A stretch of 64,000 bases of DNA from Neodothiora populina (Eukaryota): the NCBI RefSeq assembly GCF_041146345.1, contig NW_027191409.1, forward strand, positions 1,736,001 to 1,800,000, written 5' to 3'. Made by a program: the position numbers and the translations under genes. The notes under the pieces were generated by a model. The model was not told where the DNA came from, made no database searches, and saw nothing but the letters and a program-made list of their open reading frames with translations. Every line of letters starts with the position of its first letter. The first letter of the stretch is position 1. Below, in pieces: positions 24,069 through 43,330 of this stretch.

Positions 24069-26011
24069 CTAATTGTTCTTTTTATCATAAACACCGCCGA
24101 ATATCCTCTCCATCCAGCCGGATATTCCAGTCAACGGCTTGACTTCGGTCAGTTCTTCATAATCATCAATCTCCTTGACGTCTCCGCCCAAACTGAGATC
24201 TGCAGTACCCAGTCGGTGGTACTTTGTCTTCTTGGCCCATTTCCAGCCGAAGAACGCAATGGGATACAGAACGAGGAAGGTGTAGTCCAGGAAGAAAAAC
24301 TTCAGGTCCCATTGGCCGGGGAAAAAGATGTAGAAACCTAGCAGCAGAGTCATGAGGAAGGTCATGAAAATGCAAATGTACGCCGTGTAAGGTTGGAAGA
24401 TGCCCTTATAAGGCAGCGAATCCCGCGAGCGGCCTTGACGTTTCATGGCGTAGTAAAAGTGAACATAAGTAATGCATGTCGTCATGTAGTTCAGCAGCTG
24501 ATTCGTCGTGACCAGGTCCACAAAGTAGTTCATGACTTTCGCCGAGTTGTCGCTGACGTTGAGCAAGGCGAGCAAGCAAAAGGCGATGCATGCGAGGACG
24601 GAATAGATGGGTACACCCGATCGAAGTGTCTTGGTGAAGATCTTAGGCGCACGGCCTTCCAGAGCCATGGAATAAAGCGTGCGACTGCTTGTGAAGACGT
24701 AACCGTTGCCTGCCGAGAAGACCGATGTCATGATGACAGCGTTGAAGAAATGCGGTAATCCAGAGATCTGGAGACGCTGCATGGCAATGACATACGGAGA
24801 AGCGGCAGATGTTCCTGATCCGCCCGCCTCACCGTTCAGAATCGCGTTCAGGGTAGGGTCGTTGTAAGGAATGCAGATGCCAACCGCGAGGGCGGAACCG
24901 CAGAAGAAGAACAGAAGGCGGAAAGGGAAGGACTTGTAAGCAGCAGGGAGAATGCGACGTGGTGATTTGGTCTCTGCAGCTACCATCGCAATGAACTCTG
25001 TAGTATTCGAATCAGCGTGAAGATTGCAAGCGCGCATTTCTGGACGTCTGCTCTTACCAGGACCGGCAACTGTGAACGTTGCGAAAGTGAGACTGCTCAA
25101 GAATCCTAGAAATCTGCCAGTGCTTCCGCCAGTGAGATATTCCGCAAAAGCACCCTATAAACGTCAGACCTGTGATCGACACCTGCTAATTCGCGATGAA
25201 ACTCACTGGGTTGTCCCAATAGCGGAACCCATAACGATCATGTAAGGGATTACCGCCGAGCATGGTCACGATCGTGAAGCCGAAGCAAAGGAAGATAAGG
25301 ATGACTTTGCCAATCGACAGATAGAATTCGGCTTGGCCGTACCAGCCGACAGACACGCAATTCGTGAGGCTGTTTAATAGTGTCAGTATGTACATACACG
25401 GCATCAATCGTATTGATTTTTCACACACCAGTAGAGAAAGATGAGAATGAAAACGGTTGCTTCCACCGGCAGCTTGTCCGTCCAAAAGCCAATCAGGCGA
25501 TGGAAGGCAGTCATCTCGAAGGGGATGAGCAAGACTTGGTTGAAGAAGAACACCCAGGACTGCGTAAAACCCAGAGCGTCATCTACCCATTCGCCAGAGA
25601 ATCGAATGAAAGGCGCTGGAACAGGCGCATAGCAGACCATCTCGGCTGTACGAAGACGTAAGTCGTGGGCCCCTTACCAAGACAGGTTCGTAGTAGCTCA
25701 CCAAAGCATTCATTGACACCGTAGGCCACCATAGACCATATCGCAAAGGCCAAAAACAATCCAGCAGGACCACTGATGGGGAGTTGCGAGCCCATACTGA
25801 CGAACACCACGGTACCTATCGAGGCTCCAATTGCAAATAGTTGCACCTGCTTTCCGCCGAGCTTGCGCTGCAGGTGGGCAGAGCCCGCAGTGATGAGATC
25901 GCTCTCGCCGATCTCGACATCGCTGCCTTTCTGAGAGTCGATAGTGTTAGTCTTCACGTCAAATTTCTCCACCGTGTGAACCTCAGAGACAAAATCATTT
26001 GGGGCTGCCAT
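24069..26011 (-). CDS. Amino acid permease (APC superfamily, yeast amino acid transporter type)
   Basis: Multi-exon. LQRKLGGKQVQLFAIGASIGT, GWYGQAEF, DRYGFRYW, AAETKSPRR, SPYVIAM, SRTLYSMALEGRAPKIF and many TM segments. Confidence 0.93.
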
Positions 26012-27410
26012 CGATGGGAATAACAAGTAGAGGAGAGAAGTGTGAGCAACGGGGTGCAGATCTAGGAACGATGAATGGCTCTCAGCTGTCTGTCTGTCTC
26101 CGCTTCTTGACTAGCGATACAGGCACAGAATATATTTCACAAGATTGATTATGTGCCAGGCTTACCATAGATATGCCTCCGAGTTAATAGAGAGCGTAGA
26201 CCTGGACTTTCTGTCAGATGCCGTATAGATAAGATATGCGCGGAGCCACCGCGCGCTATCTGTGGGTACAAGACAGCCGCCTATCCATCGGCATGGTTTA
26301 GGCGCATGCGGGTCCACGCTTTCAGTGTTATCAGCACCTGTGGCCACTTAATTGTCCCGAAGTCGATAGCGTCATGTGGGTCGTATGATCGAATCATAGG
26401 CAGATCCGATGATCTGTACTCACCTTCCGTATGATAGAGGAGGCTGGGGAGGAATGTCTCGTGGAGAACGAGTTTATCATTACTAGTGATGATTGTGGTT
26501 CGCGGGGAGTGGGGGGCATTATGTGGGTTGTAATATCCACTGTTAGCAGGAAGATATTGCGAGTCTTGGCAGACGCTGTCCTTGGCGTTTCTGATAAACA
26601 CAACTCTCTTTTATGGGGTTGGTCATGTTTAACCACAACTTGTCGATAGAAAGTTTATGGGCGGTAGACTCCCAGCCGTGGAAAGGGTCGAGAACCAAGA
26701 AGTCGCTTTTAAGCTTTCGTTAGCTCGCCATTCAATGGTTCTATTGCGTGCGGGAGAATCAGCACACGCATATGCAAGCATGAACCCATGCATTCGTGAT
26801 TGATAGGATATGCACTCCTAATCAGAGCCAGTATACTTGCAGCAATGTCCATATGGCTTGATGCGTACAGTCAATTGATTCCTAGTTATCAAAACAGGTG
26901 TGAAAGATGATGAGGCGGCAGGATCATTAACGTGACGACATCGATAAGGAGGGCAATTTGGCAGAGGAATTCTGAGTTTGTGCTCCGTTCATAAGATTTG
27001 CATGTGTATGCGTGTCTCTATAGCTTGTGCGTGAGCGATCGATATCTACGAGGTACTGTCCAGCCTGAAACGATGACTTAGCGACTATAAGCATCAATCA
27101 TCATTGTACAGACCACGACTCCAACCACGCAAACCTGGATATGTGCGTTGAGGCCAGATAAGAAGACTCCATCGCAGTCATCGATGCGTGTGCGTGACGT
27201 CTCGGCGTCTCGTGTCTCGTGGTCCATTGGTCGTGCAATTAAAAGATGGGCTAGAGAAATTTACCAAAGGTGTTTGGAATTTGGAACGGTCATCTAATTG
27301 AACTCCTTTAATGCGCCGGATCCATTATAGGCAAGTCGGATTGCTGAAGTCGTCAATTAATCGCATGACAGCGAGGGCCCTAAACAAGATACGACTTCAT
27401 TACGTCCAAA

Positions 27411-28385
27411 TTAGAGATCCTGTCTCCATAGCCAGTCTTCGAAACCTTTCGCATCAAGTCCTTGGGGAATCTTCTCAGTCGACTGCGCCCATTTCTTCGT
27501 GGAGCCATAACTCGAGTGTCTCGAGGGCGACTTGACTATGGCCAGCATATCGATAACATCAGGACTTTCGGTTCCCTCACACATGATCCTCTTCTCAAGG
27601 CATCTCTGCGCGAAGACTTTCGCTCGGGCCTGATCACTGTGCATATTACACAGCTGGAATGCGTCGTAGTATACACGATGGATCCTGGAGTCTCGAATAC
27701 CTTCCTCCTCGAAAACTGCCAACAACGAGCGACAGTCAGCTAATGCTCGTTCCGGTGACATCCTCGCTCTTTTCGGATCGCCGATGGCTTCGTCGAGTTG
27801 TCGCGCCTTGCTTTGTCGCGCATCACTGAGCTCCAGCTCGTCCTTGGGCAGTGCGCACAGCTCGCAAGCGCAATCAAAGCCGAAGAACTCTTTCAATATC
27901 TCGCGACGCTCTGAAGAGGTGCCACCGACGTGATATGACATGGTGATCTCATCACCAACAGCCATATCACAGATTGCATATACTGTCTCTTTCTGCAAGA
28001 TTGAGTTCCAAGCCTGCTGGCAATTCGGCTTGCAGCTATGATTAATGCGAGCGACAACAGGGAAAACACCTCCTACGTCTGCACCAGAACCCAGAGGGTA
28101 CGCATTGGATCGAATAATATTGCTGAAAGGATCTTTTCCTGGCCGATTGTTGTGTAGGGTGAGAAATGCTCGTTGCGAATCCTTCGGCAAGGCTCTGACA
28201 ATGGCTGCAATTTGTTTCTCTTCGGTAATGCCTTCTGTAGTGAAAAGTGGACTTTCACTTATGATACACGTCCCAGGGGCAATACTTTGACTCGCGACCA
28301 GTCCTTGCCCTTTTCCAGGAATGGCTTGTTGGTTGTACAATATTGTGCTGACTGTGTTACCAGTCCATGACGTGCCCGACGCCAT
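27411..28385 (-). CDS. SET-domain lysine methyltransferase (Set5/SMYD-like) with helical C-terminal domain
   Basis: GKGQGLVA, ARINHSCKPN, GDEITMSY and post-SET FGFDCACELC. Confidence 0.9.
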   Translation of the reverse strand: MASGTSWTGNTVSTILYNQQAIPGKGQGLVASQSIAPGTCIISESPLFTTEGITEEKQIAAIVRALPKDSQRAFLTLHNNRPGKDPFSNIIRSNAYPLGSGADVGGVFPVVARINHSCKPNCQQAWNSILQKETVYAICDMAVGDEITMSYHVGGTSSERREILKEFFGFDCACELCALPKDELELSDARQSKARQLDEAIGDPKRARMSPERALADCRSLLAVFEEEGIRDSRIHRVYYDAFQLCNMHSDQARAKVFAQRCLEKRIMCEGTESPDVIDMLAIVKSPSRHSSYGSTKKWAQSTEKIPQGLDAKGFEDWLWRQDL

Positions 28386-29897
28386 ATTCGCCTGTTTGTA
28401 CTGGGGTAGTGTGATATCTCAATGTACGATGTATTGACAAGATTTCAAGGGCCGCGACCACGCTGCCCTGTCGAATACAGAAAAAAAGCATGTCATCCGA
28501 TGAAATGAGATGAGTACGATGACCTTACAAGGCGCCTCACATTTGCGACGAAAGACTTCTTGCAGAAAAATGCGCAACAGGAGGATCAACGATCAGCGAT
28601 CGGCGGTAATTCTTCGGAGTCGACCCCGGCTTTACCGTATAAGGATCCATGGGGTTGGACCGGTCGATCTATAACAAACCACGATGGACCACCAACTCGA
28701 CGGGGTAAAGTTGGGTGGAATGACTTACGGTTTCGCTGTACATTGGGCTGTCCAGTCGATCTTATATTCGGGCTACGGTGAAGAACTCGGCTCGATGCAA
28801 GAACAGAGCCTATGTGACAATATGTCGACTCGCGATTGTCTCCGGACTTGTCAGAAGAACCGAGAGCTTTTGAGACTCAGCAGATGGCATGATTGGGTGC
28901 GGGACTCGGACAGATTCGGCAAACGAAGATGAAGAGGTGGATGAGGTTCATATTTTGTAGTCCAGTTTATGGTTCGAACAACATCTTACAGTAGATACAG
29001 TACTTGTAGATGCTGACCACTTGCGCCTACCTTACCTTATGCATCCTATGAATAATGCCAAGATTAGCCTGACATGAATCGAGCATCAGCGGGAGCTAAA
29101 AGACCAAATCTGGACCGTGCATCTATCGAGCCAATGAGTTCGATTTCTTTATCGAGAGTCCATCAAGCTTGTCGTTGTGATGGAAAGCATCCAGCTCCGT
29201 TGATAAAACCTTTTGTCGATATTCATGCTGATGCAGAGATGCTGCACCTCTCTTGTATAAGGACCTGTCTCCCTTTCATGCACATATCACTCGAGCATAA
29301 GACGAATCATGGCAACTAAGGTAATATAGGGCGGATGTTGGATCACAGAATGCTCTGCGTTCCGTTAGGCAGGTTTCGAGCACACTGGCTCGGCAGCTGA
29401 TGCAACCCTTGATACATACACTGTGGCCTCTGCATGCAAAGGATCAGATAAGCACAAGTGGGGATGATTCACTAATATGACTGATGATTATCCTGTCTTT
29501 TGTTCTACAAGGACATGGACGTCGCCCATCAATCCAGCCAGACCATTGATACTGTAGTCGCTGCTACTGACCAAACGGACAAGTCGAATGCTGCAGTGTT
29601 GTAAGTCTTGCCACAGCATGACGCACAGTGTGTCGCATGATCTACGAGAAGGAGATCCTTGGCGATAAGGATGGCACCCATTGCGATAGCACCAAGATCA
29701 CGGTAAGAAGGGTTTACAGGCAGTAATCATCCGGTAAATACAGCCAAATGTGGTATCGAGTTCCGTCAAGAGCCCAGGGAAGTGCTACAAGCATGAAACA
29801 CCGTTACAGTCCCTCTTATGATTGATATAGTCGAGCAATAGGCATACTTCATACTAGCCATTTTAGACGTATCTCCGCCACAAAACCTCCAATCATC

Positions 29898-31023
29898 ATG
29901 TCATCTGCAACGCACACCCTACCCGCCTCTTGGTTTCGTAGTTCTCCACTGTACCAACTGGAGAGAAGGGCGGTGTTCCTACGAGCCTGGTATCTTCTGG
30001 GACCACAGGTGAAGTTCGAGGAGGGAAACCCTGTCAGATATGAATTTGCCCAAGTCGCAGTGACAGTCTGTCCTACTGCTGGCTCCAGCGACAAGCGTGA
30101 CATCAAGGTCTCCAGAGATTATGATGTATGAGATCGCATCGTCTCGAAACTTGCTTCAACCACTCATTATATTGCAGGGTAAGGAACTCCGAAGCCATCT
30201 CACAAAGACTGGCCTGCTCTTCACAACAATCTCCGACGAAGCTCCCTCGTTCGAAGACTTCTTCCCCGATCTGGAAGAGACACTAGACACTGTGGATTTC
30301 TCCAAGAGGCCATACAAGCGCAGCATCGCGTATGAGGGCCATTTTAACTGGAAGACCATGTTAGAGTGTCCTGTACTTGGCTGAGGATCTCAAAGAACAC
30401 TAAACTGATGCTTGCTCGTAGGGTTGATGGATACCAGGAATGCTTGCATTGCCAGTATACTCATCCGGCATTTTCTGTCCTTTACCCCCCTACATTCTAC
30501 AATGTCATCAACCACTCTAATTGGTGCCGTCACATTGCCGATCCCAAGAAGCCAGATGACGGTCTCTTCTTATACTTCTTCCCAAACTGCACCTTGAACG
30601 TCTATGGTGGCGGCATGTCTACCTTCCGCGTCTGTCCAACGGAGGAGCCGGGAACCACTCGTATGGAGTTTGACTACTTCCATGTCGAGTCCGGCGAGAA
30701 GTTCGAGGAGTACTTCAAATTTGTCCGTCAGGTCGCACTTGAAGACTACGAGTTGTGTGAGAAGGCACAGGAGAATTTGGAGAGAGGTGTCTACTCCGAA
30801 GGCATCCTGAACCCCGTGAAGGAGTCCGGAGTTGCTTGTAAGTCAAATTCTGCCCTTTGCCATGTCAAGTACGAAGACACTAATGCTGGTATCAGACTAT
30901 CAACAACGTGTATTTGAACTCGTGACAGCACAGTTCGACAAGGACAGAAAGGAGAAGATGGCTGCCTCCGAGCTTGACAAGGAGCATCCGGCTGGCCCAG
31001 ACGCACGCAGCCTTGTTGTTTGA
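29898..31023 (+). CDS. Rieske-oxygenase (choline/carnitine monooxygenase-like) catalytic subunit lacking the Rieske [2Fe-2S] motif
   Basis: Introns 30126-30177, 30360-30421 and 30838-30895. N-terminal TLPASWFRSSPLYQLERRAVF; catalytic NWKTMVDGYQECLHCQYTHP and EDYELCEKAQENL. No CxH...CxxH motif. Confidence 0.88.
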
Positions 31024-32092
31024 AAAGCCATTGCTAGGTGTCATATAAGCAATCCAATTGTATCCTGAACCCGATACAAGTATTTACCTCATGGCCTCGG
31101 TCAGGAGCGATAAGCAGTCATGGTTAATTTTATCTATCCATGTCTAATCCTAGTTCTGCGCATTACATGCACCAGGAGTTTACGATCACGTAGATTCAGC
31201 GTCACCCAAGATACACTGGGAAGTACCCACCGAGGCCGAAGCCATCCGTCATCTTGCCGGTATTATGAAAGAAAGTGAGGGAAACCCATTGTATCTGACG
31301 ACAGATCGTGCTGAGGAAAGCATTATGATCAAACTTTACCTACAATTCGTCCTTTCAACATCACTCACAGGCTAGATCCCACATAACCCAAGAACAACAC
31401 AACCTAGATCACAAGTATGAGTGTAGGCATGAGTATGCAGTAGCTTTCGGGGACAGCGATAGGAAAGCCCCTCACAAAGCTAATCCGAGAGCGCTTGAGC
31501 TTTGGCTGGATAATGCAAACCCCGTCTCTGGACTGACTGCCCCATACTGAGCTACCCAGATCAGATCAAGACGCTCAAGAGAAATCATATAGAGAGTGCT
31601 ATCTAGGGTGCGCTGAGTTCTATTGATTGATCTGCATGAGTACCCTTGTTTCCCTGCGCATGCTAGCGACCAATGAAACGTTGTCTATTTGTGCCACCCG
31701 TACCTCGGAATCGACGGAGGACTTCACAAGTACTGTACGTAGAGTAGATCTAAAGATAAACCCCAGGGAGCACGGTGGCATTTGAATTTCGGGGAGATAG
31801 GTTATTTGGTGATCATACCTTACGCTTTGTGATGCTTCCCTGCAGGACTCAGGCGGAGTTTTACCCACCTATCAGCGACCCCGGACATGTGCATCCAAAG
31901 GATTAAGAGCTCTATTCTCTTCCTGTTCTGGTAAATCTGTCCAGCTTGTATATCGAGAGCTGGTAAAGATGATGTTACTCCTTCAAAAGTCTCATAGATT
32001 CTATATGGTATCAAGAAGTACCATTAGAAATACACGAGGCGGACGGCAATTACTATACTCGAAAATTTGCGCGTCGTGATTGATTGATAACA

Positions 32093-33553
32093 ATGGCGAT
32101 GAGCGTGTCACTACTTTCTACAGCGGCAGTTGCCACGATCGCCTGTCTGCTCTTACCAAATTTACTACTGTACCTGCTACGTTACTATTCCCAGGACCAA
32201 TCCCTCAAGGGAAATCATCAAGTCGCCGACGTCAACGACGAGAATTCGGCTTCCGTCAGTCAAGAACCTGATGTGTCCGAGGGATGGTGGACATCTGAGC
32301 AACATCTGGCTCTCGAGAAACGTGCTCTTTTCAGCAAAGTATGTATAATGAATCCCCTCATACGATGGTATACTGACGCTCTTCTGTTCAGGCGTGGATC
32401 CAAACAGCGCATGTAAGCAGTTTCCCAAAGTCTGGAGCCTATGTGAGCGTCAACACGCCAGCTGGGTATCCCATCTTTCTTGTCAAAGGCAAAGACGATG
32501 TCATCCGTGCTTTCCACAATGTATGCCGCCACCGCGCGTACACGATCACTACCAAACCCACGGGATCCAGCTTAGTACTTGGATGCCGGTATCATGGCTG
32601 GAGTTACGACACGAAGGGCAAACTAGTCAAAGCCCCCAAATTCGAGAATGTCCCTGGCTTTGACAAGGAGGCGAACAGCTTATTCGAGGTCAAGTGTGTG
32701 ACGAATGGCAGCGGACTAGTTCTCGTGAATCTTGATTTCGAAGAAAGCGCTCCAGAGCCGCCGCTTCTGGAATGGCTTGGTGTGACTTCTACGATGACTG
32801 TGCAAGACAAGTGGGAAGTGGAGGGCGCGTTCAACTGGAAATTGGCTGGTCAGTATGAATCTGCGGAATCGGTTGTCTGGTATTGAACATTTCGCAGAGT
32901 CGGCATCATGCTTCGACATCACCGCTGTTGACTCAGCACCAGCTTCAGTGTTCGCCGCACTCCATCTGGCCTACTGGAGCAGTTCCTATCGTCACTCACA
33001 AGAGCTTTTGCTGTCGCATGTTGTTTCATCTTCGAGAAGTGGAGCTGCACTTCTTCTTGACATAACGCCCTTGTCCGCAGGTAAATGCAATGTTTCTTGC
33101 ACTCTGCTCTCTAGCCAGAAATCAACTATGGAGCCTGACTCGATCAACAAAACCAAATCAGAGGTTACGGCAAGTGTGATGGAACTCGAGAGGATCTATC
33201 AGGACATCAAGGTCACTGGTGCAACGTAAGTACAGCCGATGATGCTATTGCATCTTGAGAGCCACCCGATGCTAACATAGCCATTAATCAGCATGGATGT
33301 GCAAGGCCAACAGACGATTCTGGCTGATGTAGTGAAGCACGCCAAAGCAGAACGTGCGGCCGGCAAGAAAATGTATCCAGCGACCAGACAGGATGCCGTC
33401 AGTGCAACATGCAAGATTGCAGACGAGAGTAAGTCAGAGTCTGTAATTGAACTCAATTCGTCTTTCTGACTTTGGGAAGTATGCAGTGAGCTCGAGGCTG
33501 GAGCTGCGTCGTCTGCCTGCGGCACTGCCACTGCTAGCTCGTTGGCCTGGTAA
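32093..33553 (+). CDS. Membrane-anchored Rieske [2Fe-2S] protein of the same family with degenerate catalytic domain
   Basis: Introns 32339-32391, 32849-32897, 33226-33291 and 33429-33479 give an open frame. N-terminal hydrophobic helix, AFHNVCRHRA...LGCRYHGWSY; NWKLA is followed by no ExxHxxxxH; ends ICSEL...C...LAW. Confidence 0.88.
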
Positions 33554-34040
33554 AGCGGAGCCACAGGATCGAAGTTGCGTAAATAGCAGCTGAACGAACA
33601 CCAACTGTCACATCAGGTCTTCTATGGAAGATTCATTACAGAGTATCCTCTCACGTCGGAGCCATGAAATTTTGTGAAGTCTGGTGCTCTGGCAACTGTG
33701 GGAGCGCATGACAATGATTCATGTATCTTGGGGATGACGGAGATCTCAGAGCCGCCTATCCATGCCCGTAGCTCCAAAGGCCTCTTCCATAAGGATATAG
33801 CCGTCTCAACTGGTCACTGATACCACATACCTATATGTGGATTGCATCAAGAGTATATAGTGTTGGAAAGGAAGGGACTCTGAGACGGAAGCACCATGTA
33901 CTCCCAACACTGTGAAGCGCTTTGCATAACAATGCTGGCATAGTAGCATATCACAGTCGCAATGTCTAATTATGCATGAGTGACGCTGTGCAGATATCCG
34001 AATAACAACAATGTTGGCAATCTTTGGTTCAGAAGGAGAT

Positions 34041-34073
34041 GCGGAGTCTTTGGCGGAGCGCCCGACACTCCGC
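34041..34073. promoter_or_regulatory. Nested inverted CGG element upstream of the Rid gene
   Basis: GCGGAGT (34041-47) and ACTCCGC (34067-73) are inverted repeats flanking CGG-AGCGC-CCG (34054-64). Confidence 0.5.
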
Positions 34074-34291
34074 CTATCTTTGATACTCGAGTCAATTATT
34101 TGTCTTGGCATATCCGACAGCCACCCCTATGGTCATATTATGTTCTATCGCTGACATTCGGGAGAAAAGGCGTATTGAAATTATATTTCAATCATAGACT
34201 CTCAGTCTAGCAGTCATCCTAAGTCGAGAACGCGATTCTACTTATCTTCTATACCTTAAGCTCCAACAAGTCTTGGCGTTTTACTCACATC

Positions 34292-34917
34292 ATGTCTATC
34301 ACTCCCGTTCTCTCAGACAAGGCATGTGCCTTTCCCCCTGGTCTTTTCCGTAAGTTGACACTATATCATATCCTTGCAAAAGATTAAAAGTAGAAAACTT
34401 GATCACCGAACTTTGCATCTTGTCTGGCTTGTTCTCCTGACTTTCACATGACATTCCATTCTATCCAACGACAAGACCATATCCACTGATCCTACATCCA
34501 GACCACGCAAAAGTCTACAACGGCGTAGTCTATACGACAGGTCAGATCGGCGGTGATGTCAGCGGCAAGCTCGTCTCACCGGAAGTCGGCGCCCAAGCAG
34601 AGCAGATGTTCGCGAACCTCTCGGCGATCCTAGAGGCCAGTGGATCGGGCCTGGACAGAGTTCTGGCTGCCAACATCTTCTTGACGGAAGAGTCGAATTA
34701 TAAGGCTTTTAACGAGGTGTACACGAGGGTAGGTCACTACTGGAAGATGATGCAGGCCGAAGATCGTGTCGATGGCGTATATGGCAAGCATAGATTTCTG
34801 ACAGTGGTACAGATTATGCCTGATCCTAAGCCTCCGCGCACATGCGTCTTCATCAAGTCGCTTCCTGCTGATGCGCTCTGCGAGATGAACCTGATTGCTG
34901 CCGCTGGAACTTCTTGA
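34292..34917 (+). CDS. Rid/YjgF/YER057c family imine/enamine deaminase
   Basis: Three exons. VYTTGQIG, QAEQMFANLSAILEASGSGLDRV, FNEVY and PDPKPPRTCV (conserved catalytic Arg present). Confidence 0.9.
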
Positions 34918-35046
34918 TTGGTCCATCATCTTCGACGCAAGTGTGGAACATGAAAGATTATGAGCAGTATGAACGTGCGTGACCTCAAGACGTATTGAAT
35001 TATAGACACCAAAAAGAACGATTTTTTCTACTAATTCCTTGTCCCG

Positions 35047-36705
35047 TCATACAATTTTCTTAAAGTTAATCATGCATGTGTGTTCCTGAGAGTTTTCGTC
35101 AGCTATTTGCATCTAGTATAATGTATCTGATAAAGCTTACCTCGATATGTGGCATGCTTTCGTCAAAGAAGAGCTCGAAACGCGAGGTTATAGCAGGAGA
35201 CTTTCCTTCGAACCCTGGTGCGATGTGAGTTGTATAGTTTCTGTATATGGCAGTGACCAAAGTTGTCATTTCCGCTGTAGCGAGGCTAGAAACTGCATTA
35301 GTACATATAATTGTAAACATTAGAGCAACAATACTCACTGCATGCCAATGCACATTCTGCCGCCAGCGGAAAAAGCAAAGGACGATTTTGCGGTCATTTG
35401 TCCCTTCTCGTCCAGCCATCGATCTGGATCAAACTCTAAAGGATCTTCGTAAACATTATCATTGCGGTTGATGGAATACGCAGATGCGCATACGATCGTA
35501 CCAGCTGGGATCGAGTAACCATCGATCACGGTGGCCTGATTAGGCATGCATCTGGGCTCCGAAGCTGGCAGAGGAGAATATAGACGCAGAGTCTCCTTTA
35601 TCACTGCATCTAGATACGGAAGCTGAGCGGCCGATCGTACAGAGGGGAAGTCATGGCTAGGAGAGTCGGGCGAGACGTTTCTGACTTCACGCGAGAGCTT
35701 CTGCTGTACCATCTCATTCTCAGGCAGCGAAAGCACCCAGATTAGGAACATCAATGAGTCAGCTGTAGTATCAATCCCCGCCAGGAGGTGATCTGCGCAT
35801 TCAGATGCCAACTCCAGATCATCCAGACCCCCGGATTTGTTTCGCTGATGATGAGGCCATAGATCAGCGATCAATGCTTGGCCCTTGATATCATCCAGAC
35901 CATTTTTGGCCACTGCTTGCTTTGACATCTCGAATGCTTGCAGAGCATGCGCTCGGATAGCTGTGTAAGTTGCCGGCTTGGACATTGGTAGCAAGGGGGC
36001 GATCATCTTCTCCATCGTCGCTGTGCGAGTATATAGCCATTTTGTGAGCTTCGGAAGGTGCACTGCGAACCACGAAAGCTTACGGCGTGAAGGATCAAGA
36101 ATGTCAAGAAGCAAGGCACGATGTGCTGCATTGCCAGTCACAGCGAACGTGCCACCGAATTTGGCGCCATACAAGAAATGCGTGATGCTGTCCAGAGAGA
36201 AATAGTGCAATGTTGTGAAGATGTCGTTCGGCTTGTCGATGTGATTTTGTAGAAACTCCATGTATTCTTGGACTCTGCTCTCGATCATCGGGCTTATTGA
36301 AGTCAACATCTCGGATTTGGAATAAGCATGTGCTAGTAACTTCTTCCGGGCGCCATGGGCTTTGCTCGACTCGAAGGTGAACAGGTTCTGTTTTCCATAC
36401 ACATCAAACATGCGGTAGAAGCTGGTTCTTTCGAAACCACTACCTGCGCCATATATCTTGCGTAAAGAGGTCGAGCTATTGAAATGCACTTCGTTGGGGC
36501 CAATGCGGACAACAGGTCCATACTTCCTGTGAAGACTGTCGATTGAACGAGTACGTCGTCCGCGATAATCCTCGAATGCGAGTCGCCATTTAGTGATCGC
36601 ATAGGATTTCGGTCCAGGTATTTTTCTCAATGGACTGATGAGAAAGGGCTGGAGAACGAAATAGTAGACAACGAAGACAAGGAGAACACAAATTATTGCA
36701 AACAT
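35047..36705 (-). CDS. Cytochrome P450 monooxygenase
   Basis: N-terminal anchor plus PLRKIPGP, I-helix LLAGIDTT, KETLR, FDPDRW, heme motif FSAGGRMCIG. Two 3' introns; last exon EHTCMINFKKIV. Confidence 0.95.
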
Positions 36706-37223
36706 CTTGAAAAAATAAGACGTGAACGTCTCTCAGAAATTGCTTACCACGGAACATGATGAAGGTCACTGTAGACTTAAAAACATATGACCTTACATTC
36801 CGCAAAGCTTATCGCAGTATGCAGCAACGCGCCGAAGTGAAAGTTAATTAACCATTATCTTGGAAGGAAGTGGTGTGGGGTCAAATCCAGGGATGCAAGT
36901 AGTTGCAAAGTGGGGTATGGCAGGGCGTAGACCTAGACGGTCGGGAGGTCCGACAACGCGGCGTGAGGCACTTTCAGCTATTCACGAAGCTGGCATACCC
37001 TACTGCAAGTGATGCTCTGTAAACTCATAACATCGATCGATAGGATATCAGGACTCTCAGGCAAGCATGAGACTTAAGGGTTGATTTGGAGCGATAACTA
37101 ACAGACGTCATGCGGTTCACACAAGATTACAGTCATACTGGGACAATTCTATGTGGTATCATGATAACAACAGTTCAATGAGTATGCATAATTCTTCCCT
37201 AGACTTTTTGACAATTGCTATTT

Positions 37224-38998
37224 TTATGTTTCATGCTTGTAGTACTCCTTGGTCCTCTTCTCCGCTTCCGCGAGACACTCCACAGTGGCTGCGTTGTCTC
37301 TTGGGACCAGCTTCACCTTGAAATCTCTGGGTATAGCGACCAATGCAGTCTTGAACTGGTTGTAGTCGACGTAGTCAGTGTTTGGAGGCTCCGACTCGCT
37401 CGCAACGATCTTGTAAGATGCTAGAATGCGGATCAAGGCAGAGTAGAGAAGACGTTGAGCGATGAATTGGCCACTGCATGCTCGTGCGCCCGCGCCGAAA
37501 GACAGATGACCGACACCAAAAGTGGATGGCTTTTCGACAAAGGGTTGACCTGCAACAATAGGCTCGAGCCATCGCTCGGGATCGAACTTGTTACCGGTGG
37601 GACCGAAGTGGTCGACATCTGATTATTAATTAGTATCCGCATTGAAGACTATCCATATATGCATCACAATAAGACTTACCATGGTTTCCTGCTTGAGCGT
37701 TGATAAGGATCATGGTCTTTGGAGGGATGATGGCGCCGTTCCAGTTGACCTCGGTCACAGTCTTTCTTGGGAGAGACATGGAACTGACGGTGTAATATCT
37801 CCCGGCTTCCTTGATGATGGCATTGAGATAGGGCACCTTCTCGTCCTGAAAGCTGTTCTCCCATGCGTCGCTGATGTTGGGATAGTAGCGCTTGATATCC
37901 TCGTATGCTCTGTCCTGCCAGATTTGACCTTCAGGTGTCGAAAGGGAACCGATGCAAGAAGTCAGGGTTCCAGGGATGGTCTCGAAACCTCCAGAGACTA
38001 GTGATAGACAGATCGAGCTGACTTCAACGCCGGTCAATTTGGTCTCTTGGTCCTTGAGGATAGCCGCGGAGATACAAGGCTTGTCGGTGCCGGCCTTGAT
38101 CATATCCCTGACCTTGTCAAGCAAGAGGTTGAGATAGGCGTCTCTGCGGCCTCGGAGCTCCTTTGAGCGAGCATTCTTCTTGTTGTTTGGGATGTAGCGG
38201 AGGGCAGGAATATAGTCTTGGTAGTTCTCGGATGCGGAGCGCAGCAATGAGATGGCCGATCCGACGTGCAGGATTTCACGTAGAAGGGTATCATAGACCT
38301 CGTCCATACGGATACCGTAGCACAATGTCAATGTGGTGTTGAGGGCATAGCGTTGGATGTATGGCCTCACGCTGATCTCGATTGCGCCGGCCTGGCTGTC
38401 CTTTTGCATGTCTCTCACGATGCAGTAGCTCTCGAGATCAAGCATGGGGTAGTAGCCACGCATAGCAACCTTGCTGAGAGCGGTACCAGCGGCCTTGCGC
38501 TTGTTCTTGCAGCTCTCATCCCAGGGAGAAGAACCAATAGTGAAACCTTGGGTGGATGAGATTACACCGTGGAAGGTGTAGAGCTTTGGGCGGTCGATGA
38601 CGGCAGATTGGTTGCTGATGAGCATCTTACGGCAGTCATCGAAAGAGTTCACCACGACAGCGCGAGTGTTGCCGAGTCTGATCTGGAAGACTGACCACTT
38701 GTGCTTTCGCCACCAGCCTTCACAGGTTGTGGCATGATCCTCACCAAGCTTGAACAAGTGACCCGCAATAGGAACAGCTCCGGGAATCTCAGGGATTCCC
38801 TTGATGTATGGGATATCGGTATATGTGATAGCCTGGGCAGAAGTATTAGTATCGAAGAGACATGTTGCTCAGCAAATCGTGGTCACGCACCTTCCATATC
38901 GCATAAGCGACAGCGCCGAGTACCAAGATATAGAGAGCAGATTGTCCTTTTAGTGTCACAGGCAGGACAACGTCCAGAGGAGTCTTTCCCAAATCCAT
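37224..38998 (-). CDS. Cytochrome P450, phenylacetate 2-hydroxylase (PhacA/PhacB, CYP504)-like
   Basis: RPKLYTFHGVISSTQGFTIGSSPWDESCKNKRKAA is characteristic of the PhacA-like group. Also VSGGFET, KEAGR and heme motif HLSFGAGARACSG. Confidence 0.9.
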
Positions 38999-39674
38999 AT
39001 TAGACGAAGTGTATTCTACAAAGACGCTTTTTTAACTTACAAGGGAAAAACCGAGTCTGTCCTTGCCTTATATTCAATTCGCGTCCGCCAGTATCTTCCA
39101 ACCTCAGCAGCCCGCGTCCGATGCCCCGCTGCGGTTTGGCCGATAGAGTCCACCAGGGTCAGATAAGACTCCGGCCCAGAGACGCTGGAGAAGGTGCGAG
39201 GGGTGCACGGACTGAAAGAGGGGCTTGGCCCGCCGTCCCAATGCTTATGACAGCCGAGATAAGGTGGGGGCTTGCAGATCGGCTCTTCCGCCGAGCTGGG
39301 AAGGCGCGCCTCTCCGTGTCACTTTTTGTGTCCTGACCAAATGCCGTGCACAGATTGGACAATACAATCTATTGGTATCCTGTAGATACGTGGGGCATAT
39401 CATATTGTAGCAATACACTCGGTTGGTCACGAGCTCTCGAATTCACGATAGTATCTGGTGATCCTCTCGTAACTTTACTCACTACCTTACTGAACGAACA
39501 ATACCCCCCTCCGTCGGTCTTCCCTTCATCGCTTCCCGACGAGCTCGCTTGACCACCGCAGGGCCCGATTGGCAGGCGCAAGGGGCCCACGATTCGCTGT
39601 AGCGGCCAACGACATTGCCCTGCTACAGCGGTGGTGCCTCCGACTGCGCGCGACAACGTGAGAATCATTTGATT

Positions 39675-41980
39675 ATGAGCGAGAGTGCCTCTACAGCTTC
39701 GCTGGCCCGAGCTAACCAGGCCTGTAAGCGTTGTCATACGCGGAAGAAAAGATGCGATCGCGCATTGCCACAGTGCGAAGCGTGCCGCTTGTCGAGTGTG
39801 CAGTGCAGCTTCCAAGATCAGAACGAAGAGAGTGGTGTATTCCTTGTCGCGTGCGTTATGCAATTCGCTTATTGGTAGTATATCACTAACTAACAACTCA
39901 TAGCTACGTCCGAGGTCTCGAAGATAAAGTCCGTCACTTAGAAGCTCAGGTAGAACTGAGCACAAGCGCATCCCGAAATTCCAGCCATGGACCATTGAGT
40001 GAAGGGGGTGGCCTTGACATCTCCTCTAGTCCAGGCCAGATCACTCAGCGAAATGCTGACGGTGACTCTTTGGCGGGCGAGCTGAGATGGCTTTCCCTAG
40101 AAGCCACAGCGGATCGATATCTTGGTCAGTCATCTGGTCTATCATTCGCTCGCTTGACGCAGGCCGTGTTGAAGCGTCTCAAATCCGATCAGTACCCTTT
40201 TGCATTTGAAAGTGTGCCATCGAACGGTCGAGATTCGATAAGCGTCGTTGAGGCTTCTGCGCCTACTCACGCTGCTCATACCGTGCTCTACAGCAGTGCG
40301 ACGCTCGATATTGCGTCAGTGATCAGTGAAGAGCAAGCAATCTACCTAGCAGATTGCTACTGGTCGCACAATCACACCCTTTACCCTTTCTTGCGCAAGG
40401 TTGCCTTCACGGAGAACCTTTTGCGTATGTATTCCCAGCCTGAGGATCTAGACCTCAAGTCGCACACCTGGCTGTATACTATGTGGATGGTTCTGGCCAT
40501 TGGGTCAACGGCGCGATCGTCCGTCTTGGTTGACGATGAGAGTGAGTCACTTCAATATTTCGATCGAGCTATGGAACACTTTGAAGGTGCTCTCAGCTTT
40601 GGCGCCACTGCTGCCTTGAGCGCCATACTCTTGCAAGTTTCGTACTCCTTTTTCAACAAAGTCGGCCCAAATACTTGGTATCTTGTTGGTGTTGGAGTAC
40701 GGATTGCAATCGGCGTCGGACTTCACACAGCACCTTCGCCAGCCGTTCAACGGCTACCTTTGGATGTTCAGGAGTATCGCAAGCGACTGTTCCTCAGCCT
40801 GTATATGATGGATCGTGTTGTATCCATTGCCCTCGGTCGTCCTTTCGGCATACAAGACCACGATGTGGAGATCGATAACTTCGCTAATGTTGATGACGAG
40901 AATGTCCTTCCAGACATGATCCTCCCTCAGTCTACTCTTCGTCCATCTGCTGTAGCAGTACCCTTACATATATTGGCTTTGCGAAGAATCTGCGGCAGGA
41001 TATTTGAGCAGGTCTACTCGAACAGGAATCGCAATCTGACTGGACCTGAGCGGGATACCATACAACAGAATCTACATCAAGAACTGATCCAGTGGCGCAG
41101 GGCCATGCCTTTTCCACTCCCGCAGTCTAAATCGCTACCGATCCCGCAGTTCTCTTCTGCCTGGTTCGATCTCAATTACTATCAACATGTACTCATGCTG
41201 TACAGACCTTCTCCACTCTTCCCGGTTCTTACGTTGGAGAAAGTTGGTTTCATCGCGGAGGCCTCATCAGCATTCATCAGTCAAGTTGTTACTATGAAGC
41301 GTCAAGGTCGTTATGCCTTTAATTGGCTGAACCTTTTCTCCGTGTTCACGGCCACTTTGACACTTATTTATTCGGTCACTGCTCAGCCGGAGCCACTGAC
41401 GACCTATCTCCAACGGTGCAACGCGTTGCAGGACTTGTCACATGTTCTCGACTTGCTTGAGACATTTGGGCGCAAGTTCCCATCCGCCATCAAATGCAGG
41501 GACATCGTCCAGGATGTCATGGCTCGGTTGGAATCGTTTGCTACGTCTGGCTCACCAGTTACTCCGCGTACGCAGAAAAGCCATGTCTCAGGTCACGGAT
41601 CTCTAATAGACCTAGAAACCTCAAGCCAGATACCGTCCCGAGGATCTGAGCTGGGCCAGGAGCCCAATGATGAGTCGGATCTGGCCTACCCGGTTTACAG
41701 CACCGGCAACATGTCTTACGATGACCTTCAGCAACGAGTCAAGGGTATCGAGTCGCCCTCGGCAAATAGGACAAATATTGACCTGAACTCGCCTGGGGCG
41801 CTCGTCGAAGCAGCAATGGCTGACGACTTTGGGCTCTCGTCTACGCCGTTTGGTACGGCTGCGGCTCAATTCATGGCCGCCGGTCTTGGCACATCGGCTG
41901 ACATGGACCTGGATGAAGAAATGCTGCACTTCATTGGCTCTACGTCGGATGCCTGGGGCCACGGAGGCCCAGAGCTATGA
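39675..41980 (+). CDS. Zn(II)2Cys6 transcription factor with fungal-specific TF domain (Ppr1/UaY-like architecture)
   Basis: ACKRCHTRKKRCDRALPQCEACRLSSVQC, intron ~39851-39903, coiled coil YVRGLEDKVRHLE, RKRLFLSLYMMDRVVSIALGRPFGI. Divergent from the PhacA-like P450. Confidence 0.93.
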
Positions 41981-42188
41981 CCTTGACGACCGCAAGGATG
42001 TCTCTCCTCAAGTCGATATCAATGGACAGAATGAATGGGTTCATAAGACATATCGCTATTCTGAGAGTATACCATGGCTTCTAAGGCTTCATATTAATCC
42101 TTCACCTTTCCGGTACAAAGAAAGTCAAATTATCTAGATGGAGCATCACGTCCTGCCTCCACTCACCTTACCAACGGGACGAGTCCTT

Positions 42189-43330
42189 TTATTCCTGTCC
42201 ATTAGCCACGAGGATTCTGCCTCCGTCTAAACAAAGACATGTGCCATCGACATAGGCCTAACACGTCCGGTCAGCTTCTCTCATACAAGCACGGTGGTCC
42301 TGGGACTTACTCCGGCTTGGCTGCTTAGGTACAATACTGTGCCAGCAATATCTTCCAATTTTCCGGCACGGCGTGCGGGAACCTTGTCGAAAAGGTTGGC
42401 AAACATGTTTCCCTCTGCTCCCACCGGGTTCATGTTGCTTGGAACAACTATTTGCCACGAAATTAGCCTTGCTGAAATGCGGGCTTCCGCCGTCGTGTTC
42501 CATAAGGTAAAGTACTCACATCCAGGGTTTATCGCATTGACTCTGACGTACCATCTCCCGAATTTGCTCGCGAGTAAGGCAACAAGGTGATCAGTGGCGG
42601 CTTTGCTAGTGGCGTAACTCATCAAATCGACGTTGGTGCAATTGTGCATACTGGCGCAACTGCTCGTCACAATAATCACTCCTCTGCCAACATCCCGCCC
42701 TTTGACACCACCGGGTAAGTCAAGATTGCCGGCGGTCTTGAGTAGTTTGAGCAATGCCACTGATAGGAAATAGTGTGCTGTTGTGTTGACTTTGAATGTG
42801 GCTTCCCAGCCAGTGATTTCCTCATGCGCCCACATGGATTCTTGGAGTTCGTCTATCGAAGCTTTCAAGACATCGCAAGGCTTCGGTGTGTCTCGTCTAA
42901 TTCCTGCATTGGAGACTAATATGTCGAGATGCGATTCGCGCTGCTTGATGTAATCTGCTGTTGCTGCTATGCCTTCCTTGGTCATCAGATTGCTTGCGAA
43001 CCCTTCTGCGCTACCACCACGTCCCTCGCCGAGCTTGTTCAGCTCGTCTACGACATCTGATATCGGATCGCTCTCGAGAGCGGTGATGTAGACTCTGACT
43101 CCATTTCTCACAAGACCCTGTTATCAACAACATCAGCATGCTGTGAATTTCTCATACGAACTATCTACAGCAATTTCGAAACCACGCCACATCTTTGAAT
43201 TAAGTCCAGCAGTTTGATGGAATATCACACATACCTTTGCTATCATCAATCCGATGCCGCTACTTCCTCCCGTCACGAGCGCGACTCGGCCCGAGACATC
43301 AAAGAGGCTGCCGATCTCTTTCTCTGCCAT
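42189..43330 (-). CDS. Short-chain dehydrogenase/reductase
   Basis: VALVTGGSSGIG, LDILVSNAG, YATSK, VRVNAINPG, CLDGG; four exons. Confidence 0.93.

Follow-up and report, generated by a model that had tools for sequence, protein, structure and literature searches.

A candidate two-subunit Rieske oxygenase of fungi with its metal sites divided between adjacent homologous genes

The gene pair and its metal sites

The stretch of DNA analysed here (the window) comprises 64,000 nucleotides of the fungus Neodothiora populina, positions 1,736,001 to 1,800,000 of contig NW_027191409.1 (assembly GCF_041146345.1), and contains two neighbouring genes on the plus strand that are related to Rieske oxygenases. 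Gene A (29898..31023) has an iron site and gene B (32093..33553) has a Rieske cluster-binding motif, and each is without the site that the other retains. An intergenic stretch of 1069 bp (31024..32092) separates the stop codon of A from the beginning of B and has no Rieske motif in any of the six frames.

Gene A, the putative catalytic (iron-site) subunit of 317 amino acids (aa), was assembled from four exons (29898-30125, 30178-30359, 30422-30837 and 30896-31023) with no internal stops, and its three introns are all of the GT-AG type and 52-62 nt in length, the first being 52 nt. Since no database copy of this particular gene was among the matches listed, the model rests on its splicing and on a median identity of 67% to its relatives. 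A Pfam scan placed PF00848 on exon 3 (E 5e-16) and found no match to PF00355 on any exon. Downstream of an NWK motif at residue 133 lie Y141, which aligns with the cation-pi residue Y203 of CntA, the bridging glutamate E143 and the iron ligands H146 and H151 (30432..30464, plus strand), and the third iron ligand, D245 (30744..30746, plus strand), aligns with D323 of CntA. The His-His-Asp triad with its bridging acid is therefore present, as the original prediction had claimed, and its columns were invariant in an alignment of A relatives (alignment A1). CntA was also the best solved sequence match of A (E 2.5e-14), and the Cys pair beside the iron of CntA is retained. An AlphaFold model of the Rasamsonia orthologue of A (mean predicted local distance difference test score, pLDDT, 81) again had CntA as its best solved match, with a template modelling (TM) score of 0.72.

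The Rieske region of A has collapsed (30040..30200 on the plus strand, limits approximate, from alignments and a motif scan). Alignment against complete enzymes revealed that the cluster-binding stretch, some 55-60 aa with all four ligands, is absent while the flanking strands remain; CxH occurs only within the iron motif and at residue 172, and CxxH does not occur at all. A missed Rieske exon was considered and rejected, because scanning 28000-34300 in all six frames turned up Rieske-type motifs in gene B only, the first intron is a mere 52 nt and the alignment shows the stretch to have been excised.

Gene B, the putative Rieske (electron-relay) subunit of 413 aa, has five exons (32093-32338, 32392-32848, 32898-33225, 33292-33428 and 33480-33553), four GT-AG introns and no internal stop, and its spliced model is identical, letter for letter, to an NCBI protein from the same species (P0121, Neodothiora populina AAFC00_003906). 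The Rieske ligands C127, H129, C147 and H150 (32524..32595, plus strand) were invariant in the corresponding alignment (alignment A2). PF00355 was the only Pfam family found on B, and no ExxHxxxxH follows NWKLA in any frame, so that the division of the two domains between the genes is as originally described. What would be the catalytic domain (32898..33428, plus strand) is degenerate, having kept its fold and lost the iron ligands and the segment following the Asp helix. The AlphaFold model of the Rasamsonia orthologue of B (pLDDT 84) retains the entire oxygenase alpha-subunit fold, with structural matches of Z 29.7 to 3n0q and Z 28.3 to CntA (root mean square deviation 2.5 over 292 residues); the model of A, by its match to CntA, also has the alpha-subunit fold. 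A feature search with the C-terminal half of B scored 0.91 against PF00848 clusters, which share 157-171 features with it, a result to be treated as a lead only. As judged from sequence, neither A nor B alone qualifies as a canonical Rieske oxygenase alpha subunit.

B has two further features at its ends. Residues 11-29 (32123..32179, plus strand) form a hydrophobic segment with a Kyte-Doolittle 19-mer mean of 2.19 that is probably a membrane anchor, and a helix spans residues 5-34 in the model of the orthologue. The protein ends in Leu-Ala-Trp (33542..33550, plus strand), which resembles the tripeptide recognised by the targeting complex of the cytosolic iron-sulfur cluster assembly (CIA) machinery, although it departs from the strict consensus [LIM]-[DES]-[WF] at one residue, the middle one. 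The single RNA run that was available yielded two short contigs within gene B with no splice joints and is uninformative on expression or splicing.

Distribution and conservation of the split

Database searches with exon 3 of A found 265 proteins and those with the Rieske exon of B found 583, of which 120 were listed in each case, and the counts that follow refer to the matches listed. The A matches consisted of 103 stand-alone proteins and 17 long models in which A is followed by B. The triad was present in all 103 stand-alone proteins and a Rieske motif in none, and a Tyr occupied the position of CntA Y203 in 102 of them (CntA numbering hand-counted after removal of the tag). Six of the B matches were merged models already in the A set; the 114 new ones all had a Rieske motif and none had an A-type triad, the loose ExxHxxxxH matches in three of them being unlike each other and unlike the motif of A. 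Setting aside four further merged A-B models and three fusions to other domains left 107 stand-alone B proteins, from every one of which the triad is absent.

The segment following the Asp helix, which we take to be the part that faces the Rieske domain of the neighbouring subunit in solved structures, was kept in 98/103 A proteins and in 107/111 complete relatives, those with both metal sites, and in none of the 107 B proteins. The hydrophobic N-terminal segment was found in 78 of the 82 stand-alone B proteins with a long N-terminus, in a single A protein (1/103) and in none of the complete relatives (0/111); a further 25 B models have a short N-terminus, in which the anchor has been either lost or mis-annotated. 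A C-terminal Trp terminates 77/107 B proteins and 109/111 complete relatives and is absent from A (0/103), with 71/107 B tails conforming to [LIM]xW and 52/107 to the strict [LIM][DES][WF]. The tripeptide has been reported as a signal for cytosolic Fe-S insertion that fungal choline monooxygenases, among other proteins, possess, and as being lost along with the cluster ligands (bioRxiv 10.1101/2023.05.19.541488); the missing Trp tail of A fits that rule of joint loss.

Named hosts were Dothideomycetes and Eurotiomycetes, with Xylogone in addition for A, and the pair was found in Aspergillus, Penicillium, Onygenales and many Dothideomycetes. A-type genes also occur in the yeasts Priceomyces carsonii and Ascoidea rubescens, the latter assigned from its locus tag. 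Between members of three fungal classes, exon 3 of A shows 72-92% identity. In public annotation the pair is often merged into one model of 590-820 aa and, when kept separate, A has been named 'Bet v1-like protein' and B 'ISP domain-containing protein'. In the 24 Mb genome searched (18 contigs), A and B are each present once, together with a single complete paralogue on contig C13. This last is a choline-monooxygenase-like gene (G000:C13:1920530-1921875; L003:1372-2716) encoding 410 aa with both metal sites and ending in L-A-W, and belongs to a subclade with an NYNEC motif that is different from that of A.

The ratio of nonsynonymous to synonymous substitution rates (dN/dS) was determined for 16 pairs, most of which were saturated or missing a segment, and the segments may contain a few intron codons. 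Among unsaturated pairs values were 0.03-0.18 for the catalytic exon of A (5 pairs), 0.04-0.11 for the Rieske exon of B (6 pairs) and 0.10-0.71 for the C-terminal half of B (4 pairs), where selection appears relaxed; one B row of 40 codons with mismatched exons, at 0.81, was dropped. These values indicate that purifying selection acts on the working parts of both genes and, together with the intact frames and canonical introns, agree with the earlier view that neither is a pseudogene. On the evidence of the matches the split is a conserved, family-wide system rather than a case of local decay.

Linkage and gene neighbourhood

Among the matches listed, six A/B pairs had consecutive locus tags, and ten further pairs had consecutive GenBank accessions in 10/10 cases, although this sample favours linkage because the pairs were picked as apparently lying on the same contig. 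A less biased test was provided by a metagenome scan with A, from which 80 of 81 confirmed loci were retained. B adjoins A in 45/80 loci, 28 of them tandem and 17 head-to-head, and most of the remaining 35 are too short to judge. Where 2.5 kb was available on both sides B was adjacent in 24/30 loci, or 17/20 after grouping at 90% DNA identity. Across all 53 locus groups, 32 had B, two were without it despite wide flanks and 19 were uninformative. The co-occurrence of the two genes that had been anticipated was thus found across Dothideomycetes and Eurotiomycetes, with exceptions in 2/34 informative groups. The arrangement was head-to-head on opposite strands in 14/32 groups, which excludes a single fused gene there and means that linkage has outlived an inversion.

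The wide-flank groups without B were three: L065, L074 (yeast-like and intronless) and one taxon sampled four times (L081, L084-L086). Comparison of L065 (position 8035) with L059 (6453-8202) revealed a 1.75-kb deletion in which each of the head-to-head genes has lost its 5' part, the loci being otherwise 97% identical. As this may be an assembly fault it was not counted in support of joint loss.

No other neighbour of the window's pair recurred widely in the 30 wide metagenome loci. Downstream of the pair (window 34253-43120) there are a RidA-like gene (PF01042), two cytochrome P450 genes, a fungal transcription factor (Zn2Cys6) and a short-chain dehydrogenase, which look like a separate catabolic cluster that does not travel with A and B. 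Upstream, on the minus strand (window 24069-28418), are an amino-acid permease gene and a SET-domain gene. An amino-acid permease of ~35% identity recurs in 3/30 wide loci, and a permease lies near A in L048/L049 and L074. The local genes were tried as a guide to the substrate and discarded, the RidA-like gene, the two P450s, the Zn2Cys6 factor, the dehydrogenase and the SET gene because they do not recur beside A and the permease because it is too generic. In Eurotiales a gene of the Mpv17/PMP22 family adjoins the pair (L027, L053, L072; P0170, P0171, P0411); it is merged with B in two Aspergillus niger models and lies two accessions from A in A. fumigatiaffinis.

Origin and relatives

Profile-profile comparison shows A and B to be homologous, at a probability of 98.7%, and each forms a clade (100/98 for A, 100/100 for B) nested in the fungal choline-monooxygenase-like (Cmo1) family. 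They have an intron in common at the same position and phase, with a GT or GC donor in 44/52 A and 31/31 B genes of the metagenome loci; it is missing from the window's A and from the C13 paralogue, the sole complete gene checked. A DGYQEC motif is common to A and complete yeast proteins. In a tree of 26 rows a starred branch divides A from B, and forcing the two together costs 16 log units (approximately unbiased, AU, test, p 0.061). The original prediction had proposed reciprocal subfunctionalisation of the two adjacent paralogues, and as the outcome of a single tandem duplication this is only half demonstrated. The tree and the shared intron support a common fungal ancestry; a sister relation of A and B was neither recovered nor rejected.

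Within the yeast Cmo1 branch, which is separate from the A and B clades, there are proteins with a cluster and no triad (P0335, P0416 and P0524 of Ascoidea) as well as Rieske-less ones (P0267 and P0269 of Trichomonascus), and in Ascoidea rubescens an A-type protein and a triad-less Rieske protein are encoded on different scaffolds. These yeast-branch proteins may be a second, independent split or less diverged B orthologues. Further Rieske-less proteins are scattered among the complete enzymes, namely P0303 (Fusarium equiseti), P0326 (Didymella pomorum cluster), P0275, P0287, P0289 and P0379. Of these P0379 sits among bacterial-type sequences and P0326 is without ligands yet keeps the C-terminal Trp, and some of them may be errors of gene modelling.

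A proposed mechanism and its alternatives

From the sequences and models we consider that A and B very probably make up a single Rieske monooxygenase, to which each contributes one subunit and which belongs to the fungal choline-monooxygenase-like (Cmo1) family, and we infer that each depends obligately on the other. In CntA the distance between the metal centres has been reported as 44 A inside one chain and as 12 A from one chain to the next, where E205 bridges them (PMC7948474; PMC12445004). Since electrons cross between neighbouring subunits, each half would supply what the other lacks to make one working electron path. B would receive its [2Fe-2S] cluster in the cytosol by means of the C-terminal Trp tag, be held on a membrane by its N-terminal helix and be reduced by a partner reductase, for which cytochrome b5 or P450 reductase of the endoplasmic reticulum is a guess. 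The Rieske domain of B would then dock on A, with a cluster His bonding to E143 of A, and A would activate O2 and oxidise a quaternary amine held by Y141. That amine could be choline, carnitine or a related betaine, and the likeliest reaction would be cleavage of the C-N bond with release of trimethylamine.

A quaternary amine is somewhat favoured as the substrate on the basis of the sequence, whereas the choice of any single named compound would be doubtful. A Tyr or Phe at the position of CntA 203 has been described as a signature of the group Va quaternary-amine enzymes (PMC7948474), and cleavage of choline to trimethylamine has been proposed for yeast Cmo1, the link to growth on choline coming from genetics only (PMC5816127). 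The substrate of CntA cannot be transferred to A, as their identity is only ~20%. It is a more tentative suggestion, on balance not one we would expect to hold in full, that B is a membrane-anchored delivery subunit recruiting soluble A to membrane redox chains, that the family has split on more than one occasion and that the pair is a widespread and unrecognised fungal enzyme of quaternary-amine breakdown.

Several observations weigh against an obligate pair acting on such a substrate. A-type genes are without an adjacent B in two of the 34 informative groups (L074; L081/L084-L086), the best tree does not place A and B as sisters, and other fungal lineages gave rise to Rieske-less members independently, so that proteins of this kind need not depend on B. 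Priceomyces carsonii carries an A-type gene and a complete enzyme, and in N. populina the complete C13 paralogue could be a cluster donor. As to substrate, a docking analysis casts doubt on choline for the fungal choline-monooxygenase-like enzymes, which are described in the same source as uncharacterised and as being without the choline determinants of the plant enzymes (PMC6157903).

Alternatively, A might be catalytic and draw its electrons from any Rieske-bearing family member in mixed rings, B being the usual and not the obligatory donor. Such an arrangement, which we consider unlikely, would accommodate the loci without an adjacent B, the coexistence of A with a complete enzyme in Priceomyces and in the present genome, and the nesting of other Rieske-less proteins among complete enzymes. 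It does not account for the retention of B beside A, through an inversion, in 32/34 informative groups with the cluster ligands invariant, and the exceptions may have an unlinked B, as is illustrated by Ascoidea rubescens with its A-type and separate triad-less Rieske protein. It is less probable still that A and B have separate roles in one pathway, A being fed by another carrier and B being a membrane redox, sensing or ligand-binding protein. The drift of the C-terminal half of B (dN/dS 0.10-0.71), its gain of a membrane anchor that A and the 111 complete relatives are without, and separate origins, with which the tree is compatible, are all in keeping with that idea. Yet the bridging Glu and the post-Asp-helix segment are near-invariant in A, as a docking Rieske domain would require, and the losses in the two proteins are exactly complementary.

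That A and B form one polypeptide in vivo, by splicing or read-through, is very improbable. The 21 merged models of A then B (17 of the 120 A matches and four more among those of B) might be taken to suggest it, but the genes are on opposite strands in 14/32 locus groups, the merged models join the two through stretches of anything from 73 to 166 aa that in most cases include B's own hydrophobic N-terminus, and A of the window stops 1069 bp ahead of B. Decay of both copies is scarcely credible and is refuted by the selection data; although each gene is missing one essential site and the 1.75-kb deletion at L065 passes through both, the frames are open, exon 3 of A is strongly conserved across the three classes and dN/dS is low.

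Reading A and B as one enzyme matters in practice. The pair is at present annotated as two unrelated proteins or wrongly merged, and each expressed singly would look dead, whereas treating them together makes activity testable. The separation of electron entry from catalysis should also be useful for the study and engineering of Rieske oxygenases. One preprint (bioRxiv 10.1101/2024.01.15.575444) leaves open whether the CIA machinery matures Rieske [2Fe-2S] proteins, and of this the pair would offer a natural test, as the cluster-free A has dropped the Trp tag and the cluster-bearing B has kept it.

Comparison with known systems

The literature searched, which largely excluded subscription papers, contained no published account of a fungal split pair. 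The split architecture itself is already known, from CAO1/CAO2 of Micromonas and in the related NdmC/NdmD, and the fungal pair would be an independent case of it. CntA resembles A in the bridging Glu, the triad, the two Cys residues next to the iron and a Tyr of the Y203 type, but it forms homotrimers in which each chain carries both sites. The fungal choline-monooxygenase-like proteins include A and B as clades; A has the DGYQEC of the complete yeast forms and B keeps the C-terminal tail of the family, while the complete proteins (yeast Cmo1 and complete paralogues in Pezizomycotina) differ from the pair in carrying both sites and in having no membrane anchor (0/111). In the caffeine N7-demethylase NdmCDE of Pseudomonas, NdmC is reported to be without a Rieske domain and to borrow one from another chain (PMC10380055), and A would similarly depend on the Rieske domain of a partner. 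There, however, the reductase NdmD carries the Rieske domain as a fusion and a subunit resembling glutathione S-transferase (GST) is needed, whereas B, a paralogue of A at full length, lacks a flavin domain.

The system that A and B most likely work like, by analogy, is the heterodimeric chlorophyllide a oxygenase MpCAO1/MpCAO2 of Micromonas and other Mamiellophyceae, in which the iron motif has been reported to be in one gene and the Rieske motif in the other, with activity needing both (bioRxiv 10.1101/2025.02.10.637544, PMC9615114). Both systems consist of two homologous genes that occur together with one metal site each, and the algal precedent makes the activity of such a split plausible. 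They differ in Rieske subfamily, kingdom, compartment and substrate, and the origin of the fungal pair is therefore independent of the algal split. Further differences are that the cluster subdomain of A has been deleted outright, that B has a membrane anchor and a cytosolic Fe-S tail, and that the fungal genes are tightly linked. The pair would be an independent instance in which separate genes have taken over the two metal sites of an oligomeric enzyme, and one that has diverged more strongly than the algal case.

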